Assembly: GCA_014905635.1 (NCBI GenBank)
Contig: JABVCE010000008.1
Location: 372,001-436,000 of the forward strand
From: Scenedesmus sp. PABB004
Lineage: Eukaryota
Length of the DNA stretch: 64,000 nucleotides
Direction: 5' to 3'
The position numbers and the translations under genes are program-made. The notes beneath the pieces were generated by a model. That model had not been told where the DNA came from, ran no database searches, and saw nothing but the letters and a program-made list of their open reading frames with translations. Shown piece by piece: positions 26,288 to 44,267 of this stretch (the first letter of the stretch is position 1; the number at the start of each line of letters is the position of its first letter).

Positions 26288-27038
26288 TCACCACTTGCGC
26301 GGCCCCACGTTCTTGTCGAACCAGCCGATCACGTTGCCCGGCGGCGCGTATTGGCATACATAGATTGCGCATTGGTACGCGCAGCCCATGCGCTGCGTGC
26401 CCTTCCACACCACCTGCGTGAAGTGGCCGACCGCAGGCGACCACTGCGCGGCGCGATAGTCATATGCCTTCTCCTGCGGCGCGCGGCGGGCCGGCGCGGC
26501 GTGGCGGGGCGGGCCGGCGCAGCGTCAGCCGCACGGGCGAGCGGGGGCTGCGGCCCGCAACCAGGCGGTCGCCCGCGGGCGGCGGCGGCGCGCTGGGCGC
26601 GCGCCGCAGGCACGCGTGCCGCGGCGCCGCCGCCTGCGCAGCGCGCGGCGCCCGCCGCACCTCGCCGACCCAGGCGTCGACCACGCCGCGCCAGTTGCCG
26701 TAATTCCAGGCGAGATTCTCGCCATAGCTGCCGCCCTGGCTGTGCTTGAACTCGCAGCGCCCCGCCCACGCCGCGGCCTGCGCGGCGAGCTTGGGGTCCC
26801 AGCTCAGCGGCGGCGCGCCGTGGCGCGCGCGGTACTTGTTGGTGTGCGCCAGGAGGTCGCTCCAGGTGTTGATGCCGGCCGCGTCGGGCCCGAGCCGCGC
26901 GGCGGCGCCCGCGAGCGACGCGCCTGCCGCGCTCAACGCCAGCGCGCGCCCACCCGCCGCGGGCGCCGCCGCCAGCAGCACCAGGGCGGCTGCGGCCAGC
27001 AGCACCGCCCCCGCGGCGCGCTGTCCCCGCGCCGCCAT
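26288..27038 (-). CDS. Secreted CAP/SCP/PR-1 family protein, 2 exons (27038-26661, 26473-26288)
   Basis: Signal peptide; HTNKYRARHGAPPLSWD, YGENLA, VDAWVGE|EKAYDY, GHFTQVVWKGT, YVCQYAPPGNV. Confidence 0.93.
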
Positions 27039-27454
27039 GCCGCGCGAGGGGGGCTGCGCCTGCGGCCGGCAGCAGCGGCGGCGGCGGTGAGTGGCGCGGC
27101 GGCGTTTGCCGTCACGCCCGCTCGTGCCGCCTGTCATGGAGTTGCTGAGCTGCAAGAGCGTGCGCGCCGGGCTGCGCGACGGGCTAGGGCCGCGTGCCGG
27201 CCGGGTGCGACCATCCACCGCCGTCCGCCGGCCGCTGCCGGCAACGCGACGCCCCGCCCGCCCGCTGGGAGTGCGCCGAGCACGTTCTGAGCGTGATGCG
27301 CCGCTCAGGGCCCGGGGCACCCGTGCGTCGCCGTGCTGTTCGAGGCCTCGCGCACCTGCTCAGCCCGCGGGCCGCCGCGTGCGTGGCGTTGAGGCAGGAC
27401 GCTGGTGACACCGGTGACACTGGAGGCGCCGGCGGCTGAACGTGACACGAGCGC

Positions 27455-30135
27455 CGCTGCGCCGCCCGGCGCCGCCCCCGCCGAACCCCGCCGCCCGCCC
27501 GCCCGCTCAGCTGCCGCCGCCGGCCGCTGCTACCCTCGCGCGCCGCCTGCGCCACGACCTGGAGGTCACGCACCCGGGGCTGGCCCAGGCGCCCGCTGCT
27601 CGCGCCCCCGCCGCCGCTGCTGCGCCGGCGCGCGCTGCCCGGCGCCGCCAGTGCACAGCCCGCCCCCGCCTCGCAGCGGCGGGTTGCGTGGCCAGAGAGC
27701 GTGACGCGCCCGCACTCGTGGTGCGCGGGGCCTCCGGAGAGCAGCGGGCGCGCCGCGGCGGCGCCGACAGCAGCGCGCGCAGCATCGGGCGGCGGGCTGG
27801 CGCAGCGCCAACTGCTGCGCTCGCGCGCGGCCGGCCGCGCTCCGCAGGCGCCATGCCGGTGACGCGCGGCGCCGTGCGGCGCGAGCGGGCCGCGGAGGAG
27901 GTCGCGGCTGAGGCGCGCGGCGCTCTGCTGCTCGAGCTCGTGCTGCAGCACGCCGCGCCGCTGCCGCAGCGCGCGGCGTGCGTGCTGCTCTGCGCCAGCA
28001 AGGCGGCGGCGGCGCGCGTGCGGCAGGCGCACGCCGGCCGGCTCGCGCTCAGCGTGCGGCCGCGCAGCCTGGCCGAGGCCGAGGCGCTGCACGACTGGCT
28101 GTGCAGCGAGGGCAACGGCGCCATGGTGCGCGCGCTGGAGTTTGAGCCGGCGGCCATGGCGGCCACCACGCGGGACAGCTTGAAGTGGGCCAACAGCGAC
28201 GAGGACGACGAGGACGAGGAAGCGATTGTCAGCGAGATGTTCGCGTGAGCCCGGCGGGCACAGCACGGTGGCCAGCGCTGGCCCTGCTCTCACAACAACT
28301 CGCTCTGCCGCGGCCTCGCGCGCCGTCGCCGTGCCGCTCCCGCCGGCCCAGGCTGCTGCAAAAGCGCAACGACCAGGAGGGCGCGTCGCGCTTGCTCCGC
28401 AACGCCCTGCTGCATGCGGACCTGGGCGGCCTGCGCTCGTTCACGTGCACGCTGCCGGGCGTGGTGCCCCAGAGCTACCTGCTGGTGCGTGGCGGGCGGG
28501 GCGATGAGCGCGCGCCGCAGCGGCGGCGCTCGCCCGGTGCGCGCCTCGCCCGGCGCGCGCCCAACCCCGCGGCCGCCGACACCACGCGTCCCGCACGCTG
28601 CTGCCGTGCGCAGGCGATGCCGACGGGCCTGACGCACCTGGACATCGGCTACGGCGTCATGTTCAGCGAGTGGCTGGGTTACCCAGCCTCAAACGCACTG
28701 ACGCCCCTCTACCACGACCTGCGCCGGCTGCCAGGTGCGTGCGGGGCGGCTGCGTGTGGGCGGCACTGCGACCCACCACCACCTGCGCCGCGCCCACCGC
28801 CGGCGTCGGCGCGCCGCCTGGCTCGGCTCTTGGTGCGCAAACACCGCCGTTCCGCGCCCCGCGTGCCGACTGCGCACAGAGCTGCGCAGCCTGGTGCTGC
28901 GCATGGACATGGACGGCGGGTCGGACGGCTACGATTTTTACGAGTTTGAGATGGGCTGGAGCGTGGACGTGCTCTCCTGCGTCAGCAGCCTCACGCGCCT
29001 GGAGCGCCTCGCGCTGCACGGGGTCAACTATGCCGACGAGAACGGCCCCGCTGAGGGCGTCATGGAGCGCCTGCCGGCGAGCTTGCGCAGCCTGAGCTTC
29101 GACAAGTTTGCGCGCAGCAACGGCGCGCTGCAGCTGGGCCACATGACCGCGCTCGAGGAGCTGGACGTGGGGGACTACAACATTGCTTCCGAAGGTGACG
29201 TGCTGCCGCCCAACCTGCTGCGCCTTGACGCCGCAGGGTGGTGTGAATGGGGCGAGGCAGAGCCTCTGACCAGCCTGGCGGCCCTCACACGCCTGCGCCA
29301 CATCAGCTTTGCTATGGCCGCCGACAAGCTGTCGGAGCTCAGCAAGACGCTGACCGGGCTCACGCACCTGGGGCTGAGTCACGCGGTCACCGACACCGAG
29401 GCGCACCTGCCAGACGGCGGCCTCAGCGCGGCGCTGGCGCGCGTGACGGCGGCCGGCGTCAGCAACGCTATTCGCGTGTTGCGCCTCAGCCAGTACTCGA
29501 GCACACAGCTTGCACTCGGCCCGGCGGTGCTGCAGGGCCTGCCGCAGGCCCTGCCGGCGCTCACGTGCCTGCAGCTGGCCCCCCGCACACGCCTGAGCGA
29601 CGAGGCGGTGCTGCAGCTGTCTGTCGTGCTGGCCCAGCTGCCGGACCTCGCCGCGCTTTGCTTTGAGTTGGAATGCGATGGTGCGCCCCCGCGCGACGCG
29701 GCTGTGGTGGACGGCCTGCTCGCCGGGCTGGGGGCGCTGCCGCGGCTGGCCGCGGTCACGCTGCGTCGCTGCGCGCTCCCGCACGCCGAGGTGGCGGCGC
29801 GGCTGCCGCGCGTGGCGGAGCTGGTGGTGGTCAGCCTGGGCGCCTACTAGGCGCGGTTGAGGTGCTTTCGTTTCAGCTGCGTGCTGCTTTGTGTTGCAGA
29901 GGCGCGCGTGCCAGAGTTGTTGGCCGCGGTGTCCGGAGTTGCTCCCGCTGGCGCGCTGCGCGCCGCGTGGCGAGGTAGCTGGCCGAGTTGCTCGTGCGGC
30001 GCGGCCCGACCCCGCGTGCGTGCAGGCCGGCAGCTGGCAGCAGTCAGTGCGGGCGCCGGCGGCCCCGGCGCAGCCAGCGCGACGCCGTGGTGCAGCGGCG
30101 CCCGCCCAAACCCCGCCGCCCGCCCGCGCAGCCGC
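27455..30135 (+). repeat. Arm A of a ~2.7 kb inverted segmental duplication (partner 36960-39750)
   Basis: Upstream region, exons, introns and 3' flank align in reverse complement with 36960-39750; several ORF-track translations are identical between the arms. Confidence 0.92.
27853..29850 (+). CDS. LRR (RNI-like) protein with degenerate F-box-like N-terminus, copy A; exons 27853-28244, 28352-28484, 28614-28734, 28880-29850
   Basis: LPxxLxxLxL repeats (LTHLDI, LRSLVL, LERLAL, LRSLSF, LEELDV, LLRLDA, LTHLGL, LTCLQL); GT-AG introns join in frame. Confidence 0.8.
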
Positions 30136-30360
30136 CCGCTCGGCCGCCGCCGTCCGCCAGCTCTCCGCCGGCGCTCCTTGCGCATCACCACACGATCGCG
30201 CACACGCCGACGAATCACGCGGCCACAGCGCCGCGCGGCGTGCTCCCAACCGCCGACACCTGCTGCTCGCGCGGCGGCCATCGCGCACAGCCCGCACGCG
30301 CCTGCCACGCCCGCCCACGCAGCGGCCCTGAAGCCGCGCCCCCGGATCGGAGCCGCCAGC

Positions 30361-31478
30361 ATGGCGGCGGCGCGGCTGCTGCTGGCGGCGCTCGCGCTCG
30401 CGGCCGCTGCTGCGCCGGCGGCGGCCATCAAGCTGCGTTTCCAGGCGAGTGTGCGCGGGCTGCCAGGGCAGTGGCAGTCGTCAGCCACTGGCGCCAGGGG
30501 CGGCCGCGGCGCAGCTGCCGGAGGCCGGGCGAGCGGACGCAGCAGCGCGGCGCCGGGCGCCGGCGGCAGGGGCGCCCGCGCCCCCGCGCTGCCGCCGCAG
30601 CTCGCAGCTCGCGCCGCCGCCGGCAGCGTCGCCCGGCGCCGCGGCTGCGCCGCCGCCCGCCGCCGCCCGCCGCCGCCCGCGGCCGACGTGGCCGGCGCCG
30701 CCGCGCTCCGCCGCCGCCGCGCTGCCCCGCCCGCGCGGCGCCGCGCAGGGCGAGGAGTGTCTGTCGTACTCGTTCAACCAGTACGAGTACTTTTACGGCT
30801 CCTTTGTCTCCATGCCCGACGCGTACGGGCAGACGGCCAAGTACGACCTCACCATCACCGCGCCGAGCGGGCAGAAGCTCTACGAGGCGCGCGCCGCGCA
30901 GCGCCGCGCAGCGCCGCGCCGCCGCCGCACAGCGCCGCGCCGCCGCCGCGCCGGGCGGGGGCGCGGCCGCTGTCGCGCGCGCGCGTCCGCTGCCGCCGCG
31001 CGCGCCCGCCGCCGCCGCGCGCGCCCGCCGCCGCGGCGCGCGCCGCTGATCGAGCTGCGCACGCGCCGCGCGCGCAACATCGCAGGTGCACCACGAGAGC
31101 GAGGCGACGTTCCACCTCGTGCCGGTCGAGAGCGGGGGCCACAAGTTCTGCCTGAAGTTTGCGCCCGACGCGTCGCCGTCGCGCGCGGTCATCGCGCGGG
31201 ACGTGACGTGGAACATCAACATCGGCTACAGCGAGGGCCACGACAAGATTGAGGAGACCGACACGCAGTACCTCTGGCACCACGTGTACCAGATCGACGG
31301 CCAGGTGCAGGAGCTCAAGTCGACGCTGCACTACCTCTACTGGCGCGAGCGGCGGCACCGGCAGACGGTCGAGTCGACGCACCGCCGCACGCTCTGGTAC
31401 GCGTTCCTGCGCTGCGCGGTGCTCGTCGGCGCGAGCGTGGGCCAGGTGCTCGTCATCCGCAAGATGTTCTCCAAGTGA
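30361..31478 (+). CDS. p24/emp24/gp25L GOLD-domain ER-Golgi cargo receptor, 3 exons
   Basis: Signal peptide, EECLSY, DLTITAPSG, GGHKFC, coiled coil, RHRQTVESTHRRTLWY, transmembrane helix, QVLVIRKMFSK*. Both introns have GC donors (30445, 30887). Confidence 0.92.
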
Positions 31479-31789
31479 GGGCGGCTGCCGGTAAACGACG
31501 CGGGCGCGCCCGGGAGCAGGGGCCGTGCAACGCGGCGGCGCCCCGCTGCAGCCGCGGCCGTAGCGCCGCCCGCGCCGCGGCGGCCGCCCAGCTCGCTCTC
31601 ACGAGCGCCTCCAGACGGCTCGCGGCCCAGGGCAGAGCGCAGCCAGTCCACGCGCACGCTGCGACCCAGTCTCCTCGCTCCCGCCCGAGAGCAGCTTGCC
31701 GACCGGGCGCCCCTCGCGCTGCCGTCCGTTGTGCGCCCAGCAGCAGCTCGAAAACGAGCCCTGCAGCCCGTCCCGACCTCGCGGAGGGC

Positions 31790-32410
31790 ATGGCGGGGCG
31801 ACGGCCCGGCGCGCGCTGGTCGGCGCTGCTCGTGCTCCTGCTCGGCGTCCTGCTCCGAGCGGCGGCGGCGGCCCAAACCCACGGCGAGGTGCACCCTGGC
31901 GAGCCAGCCAGCGCCTGCGCCTGGGCCAGCAGGCGGCTCGCCGCGGGCGGCGGCGCCTGCGAGAGCGCGCTGGCGGCTGACGCTGGCCCGCGCGCGGGCG
32001 CGGCGGCGGCGCTCGCCGAGCTGCGCGCGATGACCGACGACGCGCCCGGCGAGGGCGCGCCGCCGCCCTGGCCGGCGTCCGCAGCGGGCTCGGACGGCGC
32101 GGCGCCGGCGCGCGCGCTCCCCCTGCTCATCGGCCTGCCGCTCGGCCTGCTGTTCGGCATCGCTGCGCGCGCGCAGCAGCTGCGCCGCGCGCGCACGCGA
32201 GCCGCCGCCGCCGAGGGTGACCTCGGCGGCTTCTGCGGCGCGACTGGCTACGGCGGCGGCTGCGAGCCCAGCGATCCCGCGCGGCCGCGCAGCCCTGCGG
32301 AGCGCAAGGCGCCGCCGGCGCACGTGCCGCCGCCAATCTACACAGCGCGACCGGCGGCGCCCTGCGGCCCGCCGTCGCCCTTTGCCGCCGCGGCGTGGGG
32401 CGAGCTGTGA
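31790..32410 (+). CDS. Small hypothetical single-pass membrane protein
   Basis: Signal peptide WSALLVLLLGVLLRAAAAA, second hydrophobic helix LPLLIGLPLGLLFGIAA, coding-like codon usage, no intron seen. Confidence 0.55.
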   Translation: MAGRRPGARWSALLVLLLGVLLRAAAAAQTHGEVHPGEPASACAWASRRLAAGGGACESALAADAGPRAGAAAALAELRAMTDDAPGEGAPPPWPASAAGSDGAAPARALPLLIGLPLGLLFGIAARAQQLRRARTRAAAAEGDLGGFCGATGYGGGCEPSDPARPRSPAERKAPPAHVPPPIYTARPAAPCGPPSPFAAAAWGEL

Positions 32411-32500
32411 GAGGCGCGTGCGCCGCGCACAGAGCTGCCGCCTGTTGCAACGTTACCTGAACCGCAATCAACAACCGCACGTCCGTCCGCTCAGCCGGGC

Positions 32501-35500
32501 TCACGGCCGCGGCAGCTCGCCGCTCGTGCGCCGGCTGGGCATGCGCAGCAACACTGGACTGCCGCTCGGCGCGGCCGGCGCGGCCGGCGCGGCCGCCGCA
32601 ACGGCAACGCTGGGCCGCCCGCCGTCCGTGGAGTGGCGGCGCGCGATGAGGCCGCCACTGCCGTCCGAGGCGCCAGGGGGGTCGGGGTCGCCCGCGCTAA
32701 AGCTGCCGCCGCCCCAGGCGCCGTGCTGCTGCTGCTGCTGCTGCTGCGCGCCGCGCGTAGAGCGCGGGATGTCGATCGCCCGCGCCGCGGCGCCGCCGTC
32801 GCTGCTGCGCGGCGAGCGCGGCGGCAGCGCCCCGGCGCCCGTGGCAATGGCCGACTCGAGCGCCGCGCCCACGGCGTCGCCCGGCCTGCCGGCGGCGGCG
32901 GCCACCACCGACGCGACGTGGCCCTGCAGGCCCCGCAGCCCGCTCACTGCGTCCGCCGCGGCGCGCGCGGCCGCGGCGCTCTGCTCGGGCGACGCGTCAG
33001 CGAGCGCCGCGGCGGCGGGCAGCAGCGCGGCCAGCGCCTCGCTGAGTCCCTTTGCCGCAGCGACAAAGTCGGGCGTGAGCAGCAGCGCGCCGCCGGCGCC
33101 GGGGCTGCCCGCCGCGCCGCCCGCGCGGGGGCTGCCTGCCGCGCCGCCGGCCGCCGGCGCGGCGGCGCCGGCCGCCGCTGCGCCGGCAGACGAAAAGGCG
33201 TTGAGCGCCTTGCTGAGCGCGCCAGCCGCCGCCAGCACGTCTCCGCCGAGGCGGTGCCGCGTCGACTCGCGCCGCAGCAGGCGCGCGGCGTCGGGCGCGC
33301 GCCGCCGCCACCGCCGCCGCTCGAGCCACCCTCGCCGCGCGCGTCCTCGGCGACCGACGGCAGCGAGCCCACCTCCCGGCGCAGCTGCAGGCTGAACGAC
33401 CCCAGCAGCGCCGCCGCGTCGGCCGCGCCGCCGGCCGGCGGCGAGGCGGGGCTGCGCGGGCAGGCGCCGAGCGCGTCGGCAGAGTCGCCCGGCGACGCGC
33501 CCGGCGCGCTGCGGGACAGCTTCTCCAGCCTGGACGTAAACGCGGGGCGGCGGCGGAGGGACTGAGCAGGCGCGGCCGGCCGCCCGCAGCCCGCGCGCCG
33601 GCCCGGTGCTGCCGCCGCCGCCGAGCAGCAGCGCGCTGCCCCGAGACGCACCACATGCCCTTCTTGAAGGACGACCCAGACGCCAGGTACCAACCCGCCC
33701 TGGGCGAGGTAGCGCCGCCGCCGCTCCCGCCGACGCTGCCGGGCGCGAGGCCCGGCCCCTGCGCGGGCAGCAGCTCGATGTTGCTGCGGCTCACCGCGCT
33801 TGTGATGCTGAGGGGGCTCGTCGGCGCGCCGGCGCCGCGCGAGCCCGGCGGGCCGCCGCCGCTGCCGTCGGCCGCCGCCGCCGCCGCGGGCGCCGCCTCG
33901 GCCGCCGAGCCGCGCCGCTGCGCCGTGGACGAGCCGCCGCCGGCGGCCCGGCTGAGGCTGCCCAGGCCGGCGCCCTCGTACGCATCAAGCGTGTGCGCCA
34001 CCGCCTCGGCAGTGACCGGGTTGTCCTCGTTCTCAATCAGCACCTGTGGTGCGGCAGCAGGCAGGCAGGCAGGCGGCGCGGCAGGCAGGCGGCGCGCGGT
34101 CGGCGAGGCGGCCGGCGCGGTGCGGCGCGGCAGCGCGTTCTTGCGCCGCGGCTCGGCGCGGCTGACGCCCGGCGCACCTCGAACGCGTGCTGGTGAGCGC
34201 CGGCGTCCGCGGCCGCCAGGCCGGCCGCGGCGCCCCTGGCGGCGAGCAGGTGCTGCAGGTGCGCCGCGGCCGCGGCGTCCGCCGCCGCGCCGCCGGCCGC
34301 CGCCTCGCGCGCCTGCGCCGACAGCGCGCGCGCGAGCCCGCCGCGGCCTGCGCGCGGCACGGGCTGCTGGCAGGCTGAGCAGGCTGCGTGCGCGTCCGTG
34401 TTCGCGTCCGCCGACGCGCGGTCCGCGGCCGCCGCCTGCGCGTCAGCCGCCGCCCGCTCGTCTGCGGCCGCCTGCGCGTCCGCGGCCTGCCGCGCCTCTG
34501 CCGCGGCGTCGCTGGCCGCCCGCGCCGCGGCCGCCTCAGCCGCCTCGGCCTCCTGCTGCGCGCGCAGGCGCTGCGTGGCGATGTCCTCCAGCCGCGTCAC
34601 GACCTGCGGCGGCCGCACCGGCAGCGCGTCGGCCGCAGGGGGGCGCGGGCCGCGCTGCGCCGCGCGCTGCCGGGCCTGGCCCCGCACTCGCCGCCCCACC
34701 CCACGCCGCCACGCGCGCCGCCCCCCCCCCCCCCCCCCCGCGCCTAGGCATGACCCCGCGCGCCGCCCGCGTGACCTGGCGGCTGCCGCACCTCGCGCAT
34801 GCTGGGGCGGTCGCCCGGCGCGTGCGCGCCGCAGTCCCACACCAGGTCGGTGAGCGCGCGCGGCGGCGCCTCGTCGCCGCCCGCGCGGTCGCAGCGCAGC
34901 AGGTCGGGGTTGGGCGCGTGCATGCGCCACTCGCGGTCGTACACGATCGGCTTCTCCCCCGTGAGCAGCTGCCAGGCGATGACGGCAAACGCGTACGTGT
35001 CGGCGGCCTTGGACCAGCCGGCGTCCATGACCTCAGGGGCGCGGAACCCCGGCGTGCCCGTGACCTGGCGACGACGGCGGCGCGGCGGCGCGAACGGCTG
35101 GGGCCACCCCGCGCGCCCGTGCCGCACACACCGCGCCCCCGAGGTCACCAGAGCGCCCCGCGCCGCTCACCGTGCGCAGCGCGCCGCCGGGCGCGTCGGC
35201 GGCGCGGAAGCTCACGCCAAAGTCGCACCACTTGAGCGCCCACACCTGCGACGCCGCGCCGGGGCTGGCGGGCGGGCCGCCGCCGGCGGCGGGCTGCTCC
35301 GCGGGCGGCCCGGGCTCGCCCGCCCGGTCGCCGTCCGCGTCGCCGTCGCCCTCGTCCTCGTCCCAGAAGACCAGCAGGTTGCGGCTCTTCACGTCGCCGT
35401 GTACGACGTCCACGTCGTGCATGTATGCCAGCCCCCGCGCCGCGTCCAGCAGCAGCGTCAGCACCACGTCCTGCGCGCGCGGAGGCGGCGGCGGCGGCAT

Positions 35501-35987
35501 CGGCGGGTCGCGCCGGGCCGAGGCGCCGCGCGCCGCCGGCACGCCGCGCGCCGCCCGCGCGCCCGCCGGGCCCGCCGCCCCGCCGCGCACCAGGGTCGCC
35601 GCGCCGCCACGGCCGGCATGGAAGTCCCGGTCCTCGATCTGCCACCCCAGGTCGCCGCCGGGCGCGGTCTCCTGCACCAGCGCGAGGTAGGGCTTCGCCT
35701 CGACCTCCACCAGGTGCACGCCCACGACGCGCACCTGCGGCGCCGGGCGCGTGGGGCGGCGCGGCGCGGTGCCGCCGCCGGCGGCTCTACCGGGCCCGCG
35801 CGGCGGCGCGGCGCGGCGCTGCGCGGCGCACGATGTTTGGGTGGTGCAGGCAGAGCGCGAGGCAGGCCTCCTTGCGGCTGTCCTCGGCAAACACGCTGCC
35901 GATGGGCAGCAGCTTCACTGCGACGCTGTCGCCCGCGTACTCGCCTGGGCCCACGCGCGGCGGCGGCGGCGCCGCGTTCGCCCGCGC

Positions 35988-36033
<46 letters not shown>

Positions 36034-36674
36034 GCGGGAGCGGCGGCGGCGGCGCGGCGCGTGCGCTCACCCTCCTGCACCACGGCGAGGCTGCCGCGGC
36101 CGAGCACCTTGTCCTGCTGCAGGCGGAAGCTGGACAGGTTGCGCAGCTGCGCGCTGAGCGCGAGGCTGTCCTGGTAGACCTTGCCCAGCTCCGCGAGCGC
36201 GTTGAGGTCGGCGACGCGCTGCTCCAGCTCCTGCAGCTTCTGCAGGTCCACCACCGAGTCGGGGTTGGGCAGCGCGTGCGGCCCGGCCGACGCGTCGGCG
36301 TCGGGCGTGCCCGGCGCGGCGTCGTCGTCGGGCGCGGCGCCGGCGTCGCGCTGCGCAGTCGGCGGCGGGCTGCCGCCACGCGCGCACGGCGCTGGATACT
36401 GCTCCTGCGTCTGCAGCTGCCCCTGCGCCAGCTCCGGCCCCGCGTCGCCGCGCGGCGGCGCCTCCTGCTCCAGCGGCTGCTGCTGCTCCGGCGCCGCCGC
36501 CACCGGCGACGGCGGCGACAGCTTCTGCCGCTTCGCGCTGCGCTCCGACGCGTTCCGCGGGGAGCTCCCTGGCCGCGAGCGGCGCTGCAGGGCGGTCAAG
36601 ATGCCCGCGGTGGCCAGGGAGGCCGCCGCCGAGAAGAGGCCCACCGTCGCCCAGGTGGGCTCGTGCGGCAGCAT
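32501..36674 (-). CDS. TKL-type Ser/Thr protein kinase with N-terminal hydrophobic anchor and long Ala-rich C-terminal tail
   Basis: VLGRGSLAVV, VAVK, LHHPNI, HGDVKSRN, CDFG, GTPGFRAPE, KAADTYAFAVIAWQLLTG, DRPSM; 3' exons less certain. Confidence 0.85.
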
Positions 36675-36959
36675 CTGGGGGCGGGCGCGGGTCGTGTCGC
36701 ACATAAAACGCGTTCCTCACCCACAGTCCGCCCCGCCGCGCCCAGCGCGCACCACGCAGAGAGCGACAGGTCTCCGGGATCTCCGGCAGCTGCCAGCTGC
36801 GGCTGGCGACGCGATCAGGCGCTGCCCAGCCGCATGTGCGCGCAGCATACGAAGTAGATGCCGGAGGCCTGTCGGCGGGGCAACCCGAAACGGACGCGCG
36901 CGGTAGGGGGCGCGGCCGCCGCACGGCAGCAGCGGCGCCCTGTGGCGCGGACACGAAGA

Positions 36960-39750
36960 GCGGGCGCCTGGGCCGGCCGCGGGTGTGTGACCTCACGTCG
37001 TGGCGCAGGCGGCGCGCGGAGGGTGGCAGCGGCAGCCGGCGGCGGCAGCTGAGCGGGCGGGCGGCGGGGTTCGGCGGGCGCCGCTGCACCGCGGCGGGCG
37101 CCGCTGCACCGCGGCGTCGCGCCGGCTGCGCCGCGGCCGCCGGCGCCGCAATGACCGCTGCCAGCTGCCGGCCTGCACGCACGCGGGGTCGGGCCGCGCC
37201 GCACGAGCAACTCGGCCAGCTACCTCGCCACGCGGCGCGCAGCGCGCCAGCGGGAGCAACTCCGGACACCGCGGCCAACAACTCTGGCACGCGCGCCTCT
37301 GCAACACAAAGCAGCACGCAGCTGAAACGAAAGCACCTCAACCGCGCCTAGTAGGCGCCCAGGCTGACCACCACCAGCTCCGCCACGCGCGGCAGCCGCG
37401 CCGCCACCTCGGCGTGCGGGAGCGCGCAGCGACGCAGGGTGACCGCGGCCAGCCGCGGCAGCGCCCCCAGCCCGGCGAGCAGGCCGTCCACCACAGCCGC
37501 GTCGCGCGGGGGCGCACCATCGCATTCCAACTCAAAGCAAAGCGCGGCGAGGTCCGGCAGCTGGGCCAGCACGACAGACAGCTGCAGCACCGCCTCGTCG
37601 CTCAGGCGTGTGCGGGGGGCCAGCTGCAGGCACGTGAGCGCCGGCAGGGCCTGCGGCAGGCCCTGCAGCACCGCCGGGCCGAGTGCAAGCTGTGTGCTCG
37701 AGTACTGGCTGAGGCGCAACACGCGAATAGCGTTGCTGACGCCGGCCGCCGTCACGCGCGTCAGCGCCGCGCCAAGGCCGCCGTCGGGCAGCTGCGCCTC
37801 GGTGTCGGTGACCGCGTGACTCAGCTCCAGGTGCGTGAGCCCGGTCAGCGTCTTGCCGAGCTTCGCCAGCTGGCCGGCGGTCATAGGAATGCCGAGGTGG
37901 CGCAGGCGCGTGAGGGCCGCCAGGCCGCTCAGGCGCGGCTTTCTCTCGCTGAAGCCCCAGCCCCCCCACCCCGCGGCGTCAAGGCGCAGCAGGTTGGGCG
38001 GCAGCACGTCACCTTCGGAAGCAATGTTGTAGCCCCCCACGTCCAGCTCCTCGAGCGCGGTCATGTGGCCCAGCTGCAGCGCGCCGTTGCTGCGCGCAAA
38101 CCTGTCGAAGCTCAGGCTGCGCAGGCTCGCCGGCAGGAGCTCCATGGCGCTCTGAGCCGGGCCGTCCTCGTCGGCGTAGTTGACGCCGTGCAGCGCGAGG
38201 CGCTCCAGGCGCGTGAGGCTGCTGACGCAGGAGAGCACGTCCACGCTCCAGCCCATCTGATTCCATTCGTACTCGCCGTCGTCGTCCTCGTCCTCCCCGT
38301 CGTCCATGTCCATGCGCAGCACCAGGCTGCGCAGCTCTGCGCGCAGTCGGCGAGCGGCGCGCGGAACGGCGGTGTTTGCGCACCAAGAGCCGAGCAGGGC
38401 GTCGCGCCCGCGGCGGCGGTGCGTGGGCGCAGGTGGTGGTGGGTCGCAGTGGACGCAGCCGTCTCGCGCGCACGTGACAGCCGGCGCAGGTCGCCGTAGA
38501 GGGGCGCCAGCGCGGCCTCGTATGTTTCACCCATCCAGAGGGTGAACTTGCAGCCGTAGCCGATGTCCAGGTGCGTCAGGCCGGTCGGCAGCGCCTGCGC
38601 GGCAGCAGCGTGCGGCACGCGTCGGCGGCCGCGGGGTGAGGCGCGCGCTGGCCGCTGCGGCGTGCGCTCAGCGCCCCGCCCGCCACGCACCTGCAGGTAG
38701 CTCTGGGGCACCACGCCCGGCAGCGTGCACGTGAACGAGCGCAGGCCGCCCAGGTCCGCATGCAGCAGGGCGTTGCCGAGCCAGCGCGACGCGCCCTCCT
38801 GGTCGTTGCGCTCCTGCAGCCTGGGCCGGCGGGAGCGGCACGGCGACGGCGCGCGAGGCCGCGTCAGAGCGAGTTGTTGTGAGAGCAGGGCCAGCGCTGG
38901 CCACCGTGCTGTGCCCGCCGGGCTCACGCGAACATCTCGCTGACAATCGCTTCCTCGTCCTCGTCGTCCTCGTCGCTGTTGGCCCACTTCAAGCTGTCCC
39001 GCGTGGTGGCCGCCATGGCCGCCGGCTCAAACTCCAGCGCGCGCACCATGGCGCCGTTGCCCTCGCTGCACAGCCAGTCGTGCAGCGCCTCGGCCTCGGC
39101 CAGGCTGCGCGGCCGCACGCTGAGCGCCAGACGGCCGGCGTACGCCTGCCGCACGCGCGCCGCCGCCGCCTTGCTGGCGCAGAGCAGCACACACGCCGCG
39201 CGCTGCGGCAGCGGCGCAGCGTGCTGCAGCACGAGCTCGAGCAGCAGAGCGCCGCGCGCCTCAGCCGCGACCTCCTCCGCGGCCCGCTCGCGCTGCTCGG
39301 CGCCGCGCGTCACCGGCATGGCGCCTGCGGAGCAGCCGGCCGCGCGCGAGCGCAGCAGTTGGCGCTGCGCCAGCCCGCCGCCCGCTGCTGCGCGAGGCTG
39401 CTGTCGGCGCCGCCGCGGCGCGCCCGCTGCCCCGGAGGCCCCGCGCACCACGAGTGCGGGCGCGTCACGCTCTCTGGTCACGCAACCGGCCGCTGCGAGG
39501 CGGGGGCGGGCTGTGCGCTGGCGGCGCTGGGCGGCGCGCGCCGGTGCAGCAGCGGCGGCGGGGGCGCGAGCCGCGGGCGCCTGGGCCGGCCCCGGGTGTG
39601 CGACCTCCAGGTCGTGGCGCAGGCGGCGCGCGGAGGGTGACAGCGGCAGCCGGCGGCGGCAGCTGAGCGGGCGGGCGGGCGGCGGGGTTCGGCGACCGCC
39701 GCTGCGCCGCGGGCGTCGCGCCGGCTGCGCCGCGGCCGCCGGCGCCGCAC
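36960..39750 (-). repeat. Arm B of the inverted duplication, bounded by direct repeats at 36960-37150 and 39573-39750
   Basis: Both ends read gcgggcgcctgggccggcc...gtcgtggcgcaggcggcgcgcggagggtg...cagctgagcgggcgggcgg...ggggttcggcg...gcgtcgcgccggctgcgccgcggccgccggcgccgca. Confidence 0.9.
37348..39319 (-). CDS. LRR (RNI-like) protein, copy B (inverted paralogue of 27853-29850)
   Basis: Same four-exon structure; MPVTRGAEQRERAAEEV...VVVSLGAY*. Confidence 0.8.
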
Positions 39751-39845
39751 CCGTCGCTTCCAGCTTGCCGCCTCCTCCCACTCTGCCAGGGCTCTCTGCA
39801 GTGCGGCCTGTTTCCAGCCCTCCGTCCCCGCTGGCCTCACCGCCC

Positions 39846-41421
39846 TCACGCCGCCAGCGCCGCCCGCTTGACGATCGCGACCGCGTCGCCCACGCGCACG
39901 CGCCCCGGCCCCGTCACGGCCGCGTTCCAGCCCCAGAACACCTCGTGCGTCCACGAGCGCCGCGCCTCCGCCCAGCCGAGCACCTTTCCGCTCCTGAAGT
40001 CGCGCAGCGCCCGCAGCGGCTCGGTGCCAACCTCCCCGCTCGCCTGGTCAATGGTCGTCACCTGCGCGGCCGGCCGCGCAGCAGACGCGCAGCGTTCGGG
40101 GCGCGGCGAGGGAGGCCGGCGCGCGCGCGCGCGCGCTGCAGGGCGGACCGCGCCGCGCCGCGCCGCGCCGCGCCGCGCCTTGCAGCGGCTGCAGGGCTTG
40201 ACGTACTGCAGCGCCGCGCCGCCGGCGCCGCCGACGGCGATGCTGGCCCAGCCGTCGTCGGCCCACGCCTCGCCCGCGCCCGCGAGGACCACGTTGGGCC
40301 GGAAGCGGTCCATCGGCAGCGCCGCGCCGCCGCCGCCGCAGAGGCGCGCGTTGAGGTCAGCCAGGTTCTCCTGCGCAGCGCGGCAAGGCAGCGCAGCGCA
40401 GCGCGGGCAGCCCGTGTCACGAGGCCCCTGGGGCCCGGCGCGCCCGCCGCTCCCTGCGCCGCCGCCACCGCGCACCTGCATGCCGACGAGCAGCGGGAAG
40501 CCATCCGCGAAGCGCACCTCGTCGCCGCCGGGCGCGGCGCAAAACTCGGGATCGCTGCGGCGCACCGCGTCGGGCACGGCGCCGGCCGCCGCGGAGCCGA
40601 GGTGCCTGCCGGCGCGCGCGGTGTGAGCGCCAGCCGGGCAGCGCGCGGCGCGGCAGCGCGCGGCGCGGCGCCCGCCGCAGGCGCCCCAGGCGCGGTGTGC
40701 GCCGCCACTCACCGGACCAGCCGCGCCGGCGTGTCCAGGAGGCGGGAGAACCAGGCGGCCGCCTCGTCGCCCTCGTCGACGGCGTTGCCCGTCCAGTCCC
40801 ACACGGTCACGCGCCTGCGCGCACGCGCGCGCGTGCGGGTCGGTGCGGCGGCGCAGTCGCGGGGGGATCGCGCCCGCGCAGCGAGCGCTTGCGGCCGCGC
40901 GGGCGGCGCCTCGCGTCGGCCGGCGCGGGGCGGCGCACCTGGTCGCGCCCGCCGGGGCGGCGCGGCGGGGTCGACCAGCGGCACCTGCAGCTGCGGCATG
41001 CCCGGCGTGCCCAGCACGAGCGCCGCGCCGGGCGCGAGCTTCCCCCAGCCGGCGCCGAGGAGGGCCTCCGGCGGCAGCGCGGTGCTCACGAGGCAGAGCT
41101 TGGGGATTTGGCGTTGCGTGATGAACTTGCCGCTCTCCTCCCGCACCACCATCCACTGGCGGTCGAACGCCAGCCCTGTGCGCGCGGCCGGCCGGCGGCG
41201 CGCGCGGGTGTCGGCACTGCTGCTGCTTGGTGCCGGCGCGCCGCTGCGCGCGGCCGGCCGGCGGCGCGCGCGGGTGTCGGCGCCGCTGCTGCTCGGTGCC
41301 TGCGCCGGCGCTGCGCCGGCGCCGCGCCTGTGGACAGGACCTCCGCCGATTCCAGCGGGATGCCCTTGCAGCCCTTGACCGGATACACCGTCAGCGCGGT
41401 CACCACGACGGACGCCGACAT
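39846..41421 (-). CDS. MOSC-domain molybdenum-cofactor protein (mARC/ARC-like amidoxime reducing component)
   Basis: LTVYPVKGCKG, FDRQWMVV, FITQR, DEGDEAAAWFS, FADGFPLL, PMDRFRPNVV, VKPCSRCK|VTTIDQ, GRVRVGD. Confidence 0.92.
41180..41300. repeat. Two-copy tandem repeat (~66 bp period) forming most of mARC intron 1
   Basis: gcgcgcggccggccggcggcgcgcgcgggtgtcggcRcYgctgctgctYggtgcc at ~41180 and ~41246. Confidence 0.85.
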
Positions 41422-41996: not shown

Positions 41997-43057
41997 TCAG
42001 AGCATGACGGTGGAGTCGAAGAACACGCGGTCGTCGTCGGTGACGTCGTGCACGTGGAAGCGGCGGATGACGTCGCTGAAGCCGTGCACGGTGCGCCGCC
42101 CGCTCACGTGGCTGCGCCGGAAGCAGCGCTCGAGGCGCTGCTTGTCCCAGCCGCGCCACGCCGCCAGGTCGCAGCCGAGGCGCTCAAACTCGCGCAGCTG
42201 CAGCGTAAAGCCCTCGTTGGGGTCGACGACCGGCCGCGCCTGCTGCACGTGCGCGAGCGCGGTCTCAAAGCTCAGGCGCTCGCGCCACATTACGTAGCCG
42301 ACCGCGATGCAGCCGCTGCGGCTCATGCCCTGCGCGCAGTGCACGAGCACGGCGCCTGCCGCGCGCGCGCGTGCGCGCGCGGGGCGCGGCGCGCCGCCGT
42401 CAGGGGTTCAGGCGGCCGCGCCGCCGCCGCTGCAGCGCACCACCCCTGGCGCCGCGCCACATGCGCCGCTCCGCGCCCCGCCCTGCTCGCGGGGCCGGCC
42501 GGCCGGCGCACCCGACTTGCGGCCCTCGTCGATGAAGTCAAAGGCCTCCCGGAAGACCGCGACCAGGTCCTCGTCCTCCTCGTCGCTCACGGAGAGGTGC
42601 TTGTACACCAGCACGCCCGGGTGCGACGGCCGCAGCTCGCCGCCCGCCTGCGGCGCCGCGGGCAGGCAGAGTGTCGGGGGCGCGCCGCGGCGCTGCGTCC
42701 AGCTGCGACCAGTCGCGCGGCCGCACAGGCGCCGCGCCTGCAGGACGTGCGTGATGCCGGCCTCCTGCAGGGCGGGAAGGCAGGCCTCGGTCTCGCGCGA
42801 GCCGATGAAGAGGTGCCTGCCGAGCGCCGGCGGCGGACACGTCGGCGCGTGCAGCGGCGGCAGCGGCGGCCAGGCGACCGCGCGGCCCACGGCGCGCCCC
42901 ACCGACGTATTTTGCCAGGCGGGTCAAGGCACGCTGCCTCACTGGAGCCCGCGGGCGCGGCAGCGGCGAGGCCACGGCGTTCCGACACCACATCCGAGCC
43001 CGCGCGCAGGTCCTTGAGCACGCGCGAGCGAATGTGGTCCGTCGTCGTGGCAGTCAT
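41997..43057 (-). CDS. Dual-specificity protein phosphatase, paralogue 1, 4 exons
   Basis: LFIGS, GITHVLQ, VSDEEDEDL, AFDFIDE, VLVHCAQGMSRS (CX5R), ARPVVDPNEGFTLQL. Confidence 0.92.
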
Positions 43058-43445: not shown

Positions 43446-44267
43446 TCACCACGCGCGGATGAGCCGCGCGTCGGCAAACACGGTGCTGCCGTCGTCGCCG
43501 GCGTCGCCGTCGCGGACGTGCAGCGCGCGGATGACCTCGCGCGCGGTCAGCAGGCTGGGCGGGCCGCCGGCGCCGGCGGCCGCGCGCTCCGCGGGCCAGC
43601 CGCGCCACGCCGACAGGTCGCAGCCGAGGCGCTCGTACGCGTGCAGCTGCTCCAGGAAGCCCGCGTTGGGCTCGGCGGCCGGCCGCGCGGCCCGCACGAG
43701 CGCGAGCGCGGCGGCGGCGCCCATCCGCGGCGCGTGCGCGGCCGCCGCGCCGGCTGCCGCGCAGCCTGGCGGGGGCGGCACGTCGCCGTCGCCGTGCGCC
43801 ATGAGGTAGGCCGCCGCGACCGCCGCGCTGCGGCTGACGCCCTGCTCGCAGTGCACCAGCACGCCGCCTGGGCGGGCGGGCGCAGCGCGCGGTCGGCAAG
43901 GGGCTGGCCGCCTGCCGCGCGCTGGCGCACCGCGGCGCTCGGCGTGTGCGCGCGCCGCACCAGCTCGCCGGCTGGCGTTGATGAACTCGAACGCCGCCGG
44001 CAGGTGAGCCAGCAGCTCCTGCTCCTGCGTGTCCGCGAGCGCGAGCGCCAGGCGGGCGCGGGGGCGCGCGACCGCCTCGTGGGCGCCGCCGGGCGCGCTG
44101 CTGCTCTGCGGCTGCTCCATGCAGACGCTCAGCACGTGTGAAATGCCTCGCGCGGCCCGCAGAGCGTCGGCGGAGCCCAGCCAGAGGCCAGCGAGCAGCT
44201 GCGCCGGCGTGTCGCCTGGCGCCTGCTGGGGGGCCCCACGCAGGTCGCTATGCGGTCTCGAAGCCAT
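43446..44267 (-). CDS. Dual-specificity protein phosphatase, paralogue 2; one intron 43868-43960
   Basis: LWLGS, ISHVLSV, AFEFI, VLVHCEQGVSRS, ARPAAEPNAGFLEQL. Confidence 0.9.
   Translation of the reverse strand: MASRPHSDLRGAPQQAPGDTPAQLLAGLWLGSADALRAARGISHVLSVCMEQPQSSSAPGGAHEAVARPRARLALALADTQEQELLAHLPAAFEFINASRRAGAARAHAERRGAPARGRRPAPCRPRAAPARPGGVLVHCEQGVSRSAAVAAAYLMAHGDGDVPPPPGCAAAGAAAAHAPRMGAAAALALVRAARPAAEPNAGFLEQLHAYERLGCDLSAWRGWPAERAAAGAGGPPSLLTAREVIRALHVRDGDAGDDGSTVFADARLIRAW

Follow-up and report, generated by a model that had tools for sequence, protein, structure and literature searches.

In duplicated genes that undergo gene conversion, a "peak of divergence" between the copies is described as the signature of sites held different by selection (PMC3924837, in excerpt), and the model is reviewed in the same excerpt for the human red and green opsins, which combine interlocus conversion with a selected divergence peak; islands of divergence are likewise described for the copepod GOT1 paralogues under conversion (PMC3728101, in excerpt). 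Clustered plant NLR genes (NLR, nucleotide-binding and leucine-rich repeat) with frequent sequence exchange include the RPP8 family (PMC6771003, in excerpt) and the coffee SH3 cluster (PMC3113787, in excerpt). Here we describe two gene copies, A and B, that encode a leucine-rich repeat (LRR) protein in Scenedesmus sp. PABB004, within a stretch of 64,000 nucleotides (nt) of contig JABVCE010000008.1 (positions 372,001 to 436,000; hereafter the window, to which all coordinates refer). Arm-to-arm gene conversion in inverted repeats is known from the human and ape Y-chromosome palindromes, and in the F-box/LRR receptors TIR1 and COI1 the ligand pocket is formed by loops following the strands.

We give a probability of about one half to the reading that A and B are old inverted paralogues homogenised by conversion, with five surface segments (patches 1 to 5) kept as alternative versions of a binding surface. 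According to this reading, one copy of an uncharacterised LRR protein with a probably F-box-like N-terminus would lie on each arm of the inverted repeat, and arm-to-arm conversion would keep exons, introns and flanks mostly alike, having last reached the 3′ 600 bp and, before that, the 5′ kilobase; a centre of ~0.95 kb (LRRs 1–8) would have escaped homogenisation or have been converted long ago. Within this centre the LRR scaffold would be under purifying selection, and the five post-strand surface segments would have diverged well beyond the local silent rate. The patches would then represent two versions of a binding surface that were fixed by past adaptive divergence, later conserved, and protected from conversion.

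As in the opsin and GOT1 pairs, the paralogues lie a few kb apart, are near-identical including their introns, and show short divergence peaks over coding segments; in contrast to those pairs, the peaks number five and not one or two, two of the five contain indels, and their maintenance by selection is putative. The locus resembles the Y palindromes in its inverted arms, its unique spacer and a near-identity that reaches non-coding sequence, but the arms are just 2.6 kb long and their identity is broken by an old central segment. With the plant NLR clusters it shares LRR paralogues, and conversion together with variation focused on the LRR region; however, NB-ARC and TIR (by Pfam) and CC domains are lacking, two copies are seen (in the 64-kb window), the variation falls mainly in post-strand loops and helices rather than in the xxLxLxx motif of the strands, and the data do not demonstrate positive selection. 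The short N-terminal helical module followed by a helix-backed LRR solenoid recalls F-box/LRR receptors (TIR1, COI1, D3/MAX2, FBXL), except that Pfam identifies no F-box in this protein or in its full-length relative P0028. Concerted evolution with protected divergent segments is an already described mode for duplicated genes, so that the locus is no new system and leaves knowledge of duplicate-gene evolution unchanged. It does represent a clean small case of two forces, with conversion erasing differences and selection or mismatch guarding five segments; if the protected segments set specificity, they would mark the recognition surface of an unannotated LRR family known only from environmental sequence.

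An inverted-repeat scan and global alignment identify A and B as a single gene in duplicate, arranged as an inverted duplication (blastn arm to arm: 27453–30152 versus 39725–37040, 91.3% over 2735 columns), and 7093 nt separate the two arms of one of the inverted repeats detected (I1). Copy A has four exons on the + strand (27853–29850; 538 amino acids [aa]) and copy B four exons on the − strand (39319–37348; 543 aa):

27470..30105, + strand: arm A, the complete duplicated unit including copy A (blastn).
27853..28244, + strand: copy A exon 1, 130 codons plus 2 nt, N-terminal helical module, putative F-box-like (exon model).
28352..28484, + strand: copy A exon 2, 44 aa, differing from B by five substitutions and one 3-nt in-frame indel (exon model, alignment).
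28614..28734, + strand: copy A exon 3, first clear LRR, containing patch 1; 26 of 121 nt differ from B (exon model).
28880..29850, + strand: copy A exon 4, LRR solenoid with patches 2–5 and the stop codon (exon model, AlphaFold2).
30106..37074, no strand: unique spacer of ~7 kb separating the arms, with an emp24/GOLD gene and a protein kinase gene (repeat scan, Pfam).
37075..39695, − strand: arm B, which holds copy B (alignment, exon model).
39319–38928, 38820–38691, 38594–38474 and 38336–37348, − strand: the exons of copy B (exon model).

The spliced frames are open in both copies, and every splice junction in both is GT..AG. A manual count of the alignment gaps gives four indel events in exons, each with a length divisible by three (3, 9, 6 and 3 nt), and five in introns, not one of which has such a length (26, 5, 2, 7 and 1 nt); thus, the reading frames of both copies are being kept. 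The segment to which a preceding sequence-only reading had assigned hypervariable patches (28614–29400) extends from the start of copy A exon 3 to the middle of exon 4, and the sequence encodes each of the ten peptides quoted in that reading without mismatch: five lie on the + strand (28647–29343) and five on the − strand (37855–38561).

Silent divergence between the arms is very uneven along their length, as seen in substitutions per aligned non-coding sites and in the tract that appears to have been homogenised last:

Upstream: 19 substitutions in 365 sites.
Intron 1: 1 substitution in 107 sites.
Intron 2: 6 substitutions in 96 sites, plus 33 gap columns.
Intron 3: 16 substitutions in 137 sites, plus 8 gap columns.
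First 190 nt downstream: 0 substitutions in 190 sites.
29440..30040, + strand, pairing with ~37158–37758 of B: youngest homogenised tract, the 3′ end of exon 4 and the 3′ flank (alignment).

Fisher tests across segment comparisons give p = 5e-7 to 7e-4 (p = 5e-7 for intron 3 versus downstream), and introns 2 and 3 together differ from intron 1 plus downstream at p = 1e-7. Synonymous divergence (dS) follows the same zones (5′ 0.038, centre 0.118, 3′ 0.008), and in the youngest tract the arms differ by a single nt among 411 coding positions and by none among the 190 downstream. One duplication without later exchange predicts uniform silent divergence, and therefore the unit is a mosaic of tracts of unequal age; this unevenness indicates that gene conversion between the copies shaped the arms, latest over the 3′ 600 bp. 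Exchange of sequence, which had been proposed as a source of recognition variants, thus clearly shapes the pair (0/190 to 16/137 silent), but the exchange demonstrated is one that homogenises the copies, and the acquisition of new variants from other family members is not shown. The further observation that the scaffold between the divergent blocks is almost unchanged even at synonymous sites holds for the 3′ third (1 difference in 136 codons), and roughly so for the central scaffold between the patches, which is 96.3% identical (across its 161 codons, 8 differences are synonymous and 10 non-synonymous; proportion of synonymous differences [pS] 0.062).

When the A and B proteins are aligned, 64 of the 544 columns are unlike, 57 of them through substitution and 7 through indels. 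Five patches, the boundaries of which were set by the amino-acid differences themselves, occupy 73 of the 544 columns and hold 47 of the 64 differing columns (manual tally):

28656..28715 in A (+ strand), within 38490–38561 in B: patch 1, 12 of 20 codons changed, seven of them by 2–3 nt, without indel.
28915..28950 in A (+ strand), within 38248–38307 in B: patch 2, acidic loop, B longer by 9 nt (alignment).
29041..29070 in A (+ strand), within 38137–38172 in B: patch 3, five single-nt non-synonymous changes and one synonymous change.
29242..29274 in A (+ strand), within 37924–37971 in B: patch 4, loop after strand 114–116, B longer by 6 + 3 nt (alignment, AlphaFold2).
29302..29343 in A (+ strand), within 37855–37899 in B: patch 5, one entire repeat (alignment, AlphaFold2).

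Permutation tests on the protein alignment bear out that the differences cluster in short blocks: whether scored by the variance across 15-column windows or by the number of short gaps between differences, not one of 10,000 permutations is as extreme as the data, in the whole protein and in the central 234 columns alike, and for the maximum window count (15 columns) within the centre 373 of 10,000 are. At the nucleotide level the patches differ at 67 of 201 positions versus 22 of 233 in introns 2 and 3 (p = 6e-10). The proportion of non-synonymous differences (pN) is 0.358 over the patches and 0.42 in patch 1, which has a nucleotide divergence of 0.367 (22/60 nt); patch 5 has ten single-nt non-synonymous changes and no synonymous change in its 14 codons. 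Codons with two or three changed nt number 17, all of them within patches 1, 2 and 4. The central LRR scaffold is constrained, as judged from its ratio of non-synonymous to synonymous divergence (omega, or dN/dS) of 0.45.

The A patches also differ from the remainder of the gene in composition. Their third-position G+C (28656–29343) is 79% (53/67) versus 93% elsewhere in the gene (p = 0.0007); the B patches, at 88% versus 93%, show no significant difference. One possibility is that GC-biased conversion spares the patches. In B, patch 2 (38252–38306) is a GAC/GAG acidic run similar to the acidic run that ends exon 1 (28197–28217), and is low-complexity and slippage-prone.

AlphaFold2 was run with A exon 4 and 12 other sequences (B exon 4 and 11 distant relatives). 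The exon 4 model is an LRR solenoid with 12 strands at regular spacing (predicted local distance difference test [pLDDT] 84.2, predicted template modelling score [pTM] 0.83), and Foldseek returned 277 PDB matches at E ≤ 0.001, nearly all of the 45 listed being LRR proteins; among those listed are the NLRC4 LRR, TIR1 (2p1q_B), D3/MAX2 (6bro_B/7sa1_B), COI1 (3ogl_B), internalins and TLR8. The model and these matches support the earlier identification of an LRR protein, although Pfam LRR models score below their gathering cutoffs (LRR_14: 18.9 bits in A and 22.0 in B, cutoff 40; LRR_4: 18.7 bits in A and 19.7 in B, cutoff 27). Patch 2 corresponds to exon-4 residues 12–23 (block pLDDT 51–60, with residues 16–22 below 50), patch 3 to a loop plus short helix 57–62, and patch 5 to strand 140–145 plus helix 147–156 (block pLDDT 91–92). 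The 35 substituted exon-4 residues are distributed in the model over coil (17), helix (12) and strand (6). A location just after the beta-strands, as first described, therefore holds loosely: 26 of the 35 lie 1–14 residues after a strand end, positions that make up 98 of the first 190 residues of exon 4, but 6 are in strands and 12 in helices.

An exhaustive HMMER search identified 25 related proteins at E ≤ 0.001 (best 2.4e-11, 44% identity), and all ten of the relatives looked up derive from metagenomes or run assemblies and are unnamed or hypothetical. Word-indexed protein searches gave no match at E ≤ 0.001 among 8000 candidates scored at near lengths, and none at E ≤ 1e-5 among 2231 candidates of shorter lengths; in JGI metagenome contigs, none of 149 pattern matches to A exon 4 and none of 102 to relative P0006 were confirmed. 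The family alignment has conserved blocks (e.g., LPASLQRL and LGHLTALTELDLG), and the columns at which A and B differ are less conserved in 11 distant relatives (mean top-residue frequency 0.376 versus 0.537; 24 of 10,000 permutations). The patches thus coincide with variable positions of the wider family, in keeping with the sequence-only reading.

The N-terminal module encoded by exon 1 matches the N-terminus of P0028 (562 aa; 36% identity over 76 aa, E 3e-5), and therefore the two-part architecture is conserved. In a language-model atlas, 13 of 30 exon 1 matches are to F-box clusters with a score of 0.91, but only 104–107 of 256 features are common, and the neighbours of exon 4 include F-box-associated LRR families; a PDB sequence search with exon 1 gave chance-level matches only (E 1.3–1.4), and a fold predicted from the exon 1 sequence by itself had a pLDDT of 52.4, too low for interpretation. 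The atlas offers a lead towards a putative F-box at the N-terminus, and by this line of reasoning the protein would be a substrate receptor of an SKP1–cullin–F-box (SCF) complex.

Relatives of the locus were also recovered from sequencing runs. A run search gave seven rows (shares 0.05–0.12), none of those listed being an RNA run, and four runs (X1, X2, X3 and X5) were compared to the stretch. Runs X1 and X3 contain exact pieces of A, one of which spans patches 4–5 (29129–29356), and runs X2 and X5 contain relatives that are ~89–97% alike. In X2 record 13 (28553–29231), among the differences listed, none of the 22 B states of patch 1 is present, and the two listed changes in this patch (28679 and 28709) are both synonymous (codons read manually); the 17 unlisted differences are too few for patch 1 of this record to be B-like. 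Further downstream (28876–29083, a span that takes in patches 2–3) the same record has the B state at 16 of 19 listed A/B-differing positions and a third state at the other 3, and it carries private changes at 18 listed positions at which A and B are the same. X2 record 16 (29336–29762) is ~11% from A (48 other letters in 427 nt), in a region where A and B are 99.8% alike from 29440. Where the two copies diverge by ~12%, the X2 contigs resemble either A or B (record 13); where the copies diverge by 0.2%, the contigs are ~11% from A (record 16). This pattern is suggestive of patch types that predate the split from the X2 relative and stayed conserved, with the scaffolds homogenised afterwards. 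Continuing hypervariation, as the sequence-only reading would have it, fits poorly with a relative whose patch types appear to be the same and whose listed changes in patch 1 are all silent. Run X2 is a freshwater metagenome, and in it two alternative contigs (depth 8 and 26.8) cover 29202–29365 (patches 4–5) in a relative of ~90%; the two contigs share both of their breakpoints, as would be expected of an organism that likewise has copies alike outside the patches and different inside.

From these findings we infer that selection maintains the patches and that the patches would set binding specificity. Several points weigh against this reading. Pairwise omega, calculated by the Nei–Gojobori method from two sequences in which third-position G+C is 91–93%, so that the method overstates synonymous site number, is ~1 (1.05 for the whole gene, 1.21 for the centre), and the diversifying selection initially proposed is not shown by these values; omega for the patches is 1.62, but is biased upward since the patches were delimited by amino-acid differences. 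With gap columns included, the divergence of introns 2 and 3 comes to 30% and 17%, nearer to that of the patches, and therefore an excess over neutral sequence is not secure for patches 2 and 4, which contain indels. Synonymous change in codons for unchanged residues is weakly higher in the patches (4/22 versus 8/145 in the scaffold, p = 0.055), and because this excess is weak a greater age of the patches is not shown. The variable residues are concentrated in surface segments, as had been anticipated, but the concave strand, rim loops and convex helix are all touched, rather than a single face (faces were assigned from secondary structure and repeat phase of the exon-4 model). F-box models (PF00646 and PF12937) have no Pfam match at E ≤ 10 in exon 1 or in P0028. 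The relatives from sequencing runs are k-mer contigs of mixed metagenome samples and possibly chimeric, and only 40 of 183 differences were listed overall, with 33 of 50 for X2 record 13. Finally, patches 2–4 lie in probably flexible loops, patches 2 and 4 have indels and patch 2 is low-complexity and acidic; slippage and relaxed constraint could account for these three patches. The excess over intron divergence is firmest for patch 1 (22/60 nt, no indel) and patch 5.

The most probable of the alternatives is one that we regard as possible but rather doubtful: the patches would be neutral islands, in which unconstrained surface loops drifted by point mutation, slippage and indels, and in which mismatch blocks heteroduplex formation, so that conversion is limited to the well-matched scaffold; A and B would not be kept functionally distinct. 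Patches 2–4 are low-confidence loops (mean pLDDT 51–60 in 10-residue blocks), and, among the first 190 residues, the 40 whose block pLDDT is below 70 contain 17 of the 35 exon-4 differences; the indels of patches 2 and 4, the acidic low-complexity run of patch 2, the variable and indel-rich state of the same columns across the family, and an omega not significantly above 1 all agree with drift. Patches 1 and 5, however, exceed the intron substitution level of 22/233. Patch 5 is well ordered, with its ten non-synonymous and zero synonymous changes, and by manual reading retains its buried leucines and changes elsewhere, and the listed patch 1 changes of the X2 relative, both synonymous, imply constraint. 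Relaxed constraint as the sole cause was rejected for patches 1 and 5 only.

Less probable, and in our view unlikely, is an import of cassettes, whereby A and B would be recent duplicates and the centre, or single patches, of one copy would have been overwritten by conversion from diverged family members. Sharp patch edges and the restriction of multi-nucleotide codon changes to the patches are consistent with such an origin, as are the X2 contig that looks A-like 5′ and B-like 3′ of ~28870, the two alternative X2 contigs over patches 4–5, and the X2 3′ contig, ~11% distant from A in a stretch over which the two copies agree at 99.8%; an extra copy of the unit's start beside B also hints at a lost third copy. 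However, tblastn found no third copy within the 64-kb window, its matches being the two copies only, blastn-short searches of the window with the ten patch sequences returned only themselves and low-complexity matches, and the X2 mosaic may be an assembly chimera. In a broader form of this idea, which we hold to be distinctly unlikely, the pair would be part of a larger family that reshuffles post-strand specificity cassettes of LRRs 1–8 by micro-conversion on a constant scaffold. If true, this would constitute a germline combinatorial source of recognition variants in a very GC-rich microbial eukaryote, and its footprint would be an A-like/B-like mosaic together with alternative contigs in metagenome relatives.

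Very unlikely is a recent duplication followed by ongoing arms-race diversifying selection on exposed LRR point mutations, in the manner of plant NLRs. Patches 3 and 5 together have 15 non-synonymous single-nt changes and 1 synonymous change, and the fold is similar to that of NLRC4 and plant LRR receptors. Nevertheless, the central introns have 6–12% silent divergence versus 0–1% in the flanks, indicating an old centre that a single recent duplication does not fit, and the 17 multi-hit codons and in-frame indels, as well as patch types seemingly common to relatives, the listed patch 1 changes being all silent, likewise argue against it. The protein also has no NLR domain: the immune-receptor architecture suggested by the sequence-only reading finds no support, since Pfam detects no NB-ARC, NACHT or TIR in A exons 1, 3 and 4 or in B exon 4, and there is no room for an NB-ARC or NACHT domain because the whole protein is only 538–543 aa.

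A reading in which either copy would be an allele misplaced in assembly, or a pseudogene without expression, is scarcely credible, given that a single contig carries both copies in opposite orientation and separated by 7 kb of sequence with unique genes, that frames and splice sites are intact in both with exonic indels in frame, and that exact A-type pieces occur in the independent runs X1 and X3.

A further feature of the locus adjoins copy B:

36926..37105, − strand: additional copy of the unit's initial ~180 nt, adjoining the 3′ end of B (81% over 186 nt).

Part of this extra copy (36994–37064) matches 39608–39678 at 97% over 71 nt (related span 39608–39781), and the unit's own ends are alike at ~80% (27469–27527 versus 30095–30157). 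The repeat beside B may be the remnant of a lost tandem third copy, or a repeat at which the duplication broke.

Genes in the window have GT..AG introns and belong to eukaryotic families (emp24/GOLD, protein kinase and CAP; Pfam). The spacer genes are the emp24/GOLD gene at 30449–31478 on the + strand (Pfam E 3.7e-20) and the protein kinase gene at 34744–35890 on the − strand, with at least two exons (Pfam); a CAP/PR-1 domain is encoded in the flank at 26700–27020 on the − strand (Pfam). The G+C content of the window is 72–83% over its full length, and the bin that comprises most of arm A (28001–30000) has the window minimum of 72.5%, the other bins being 75–83%. Beyond arm B, the window contains a 66-nt tandem pair with 93% identity (41179–41305) and a 128-nt direct repeat with copies 1.4 kb apart that are 81% alike (42135–42262 and 43584–43711).

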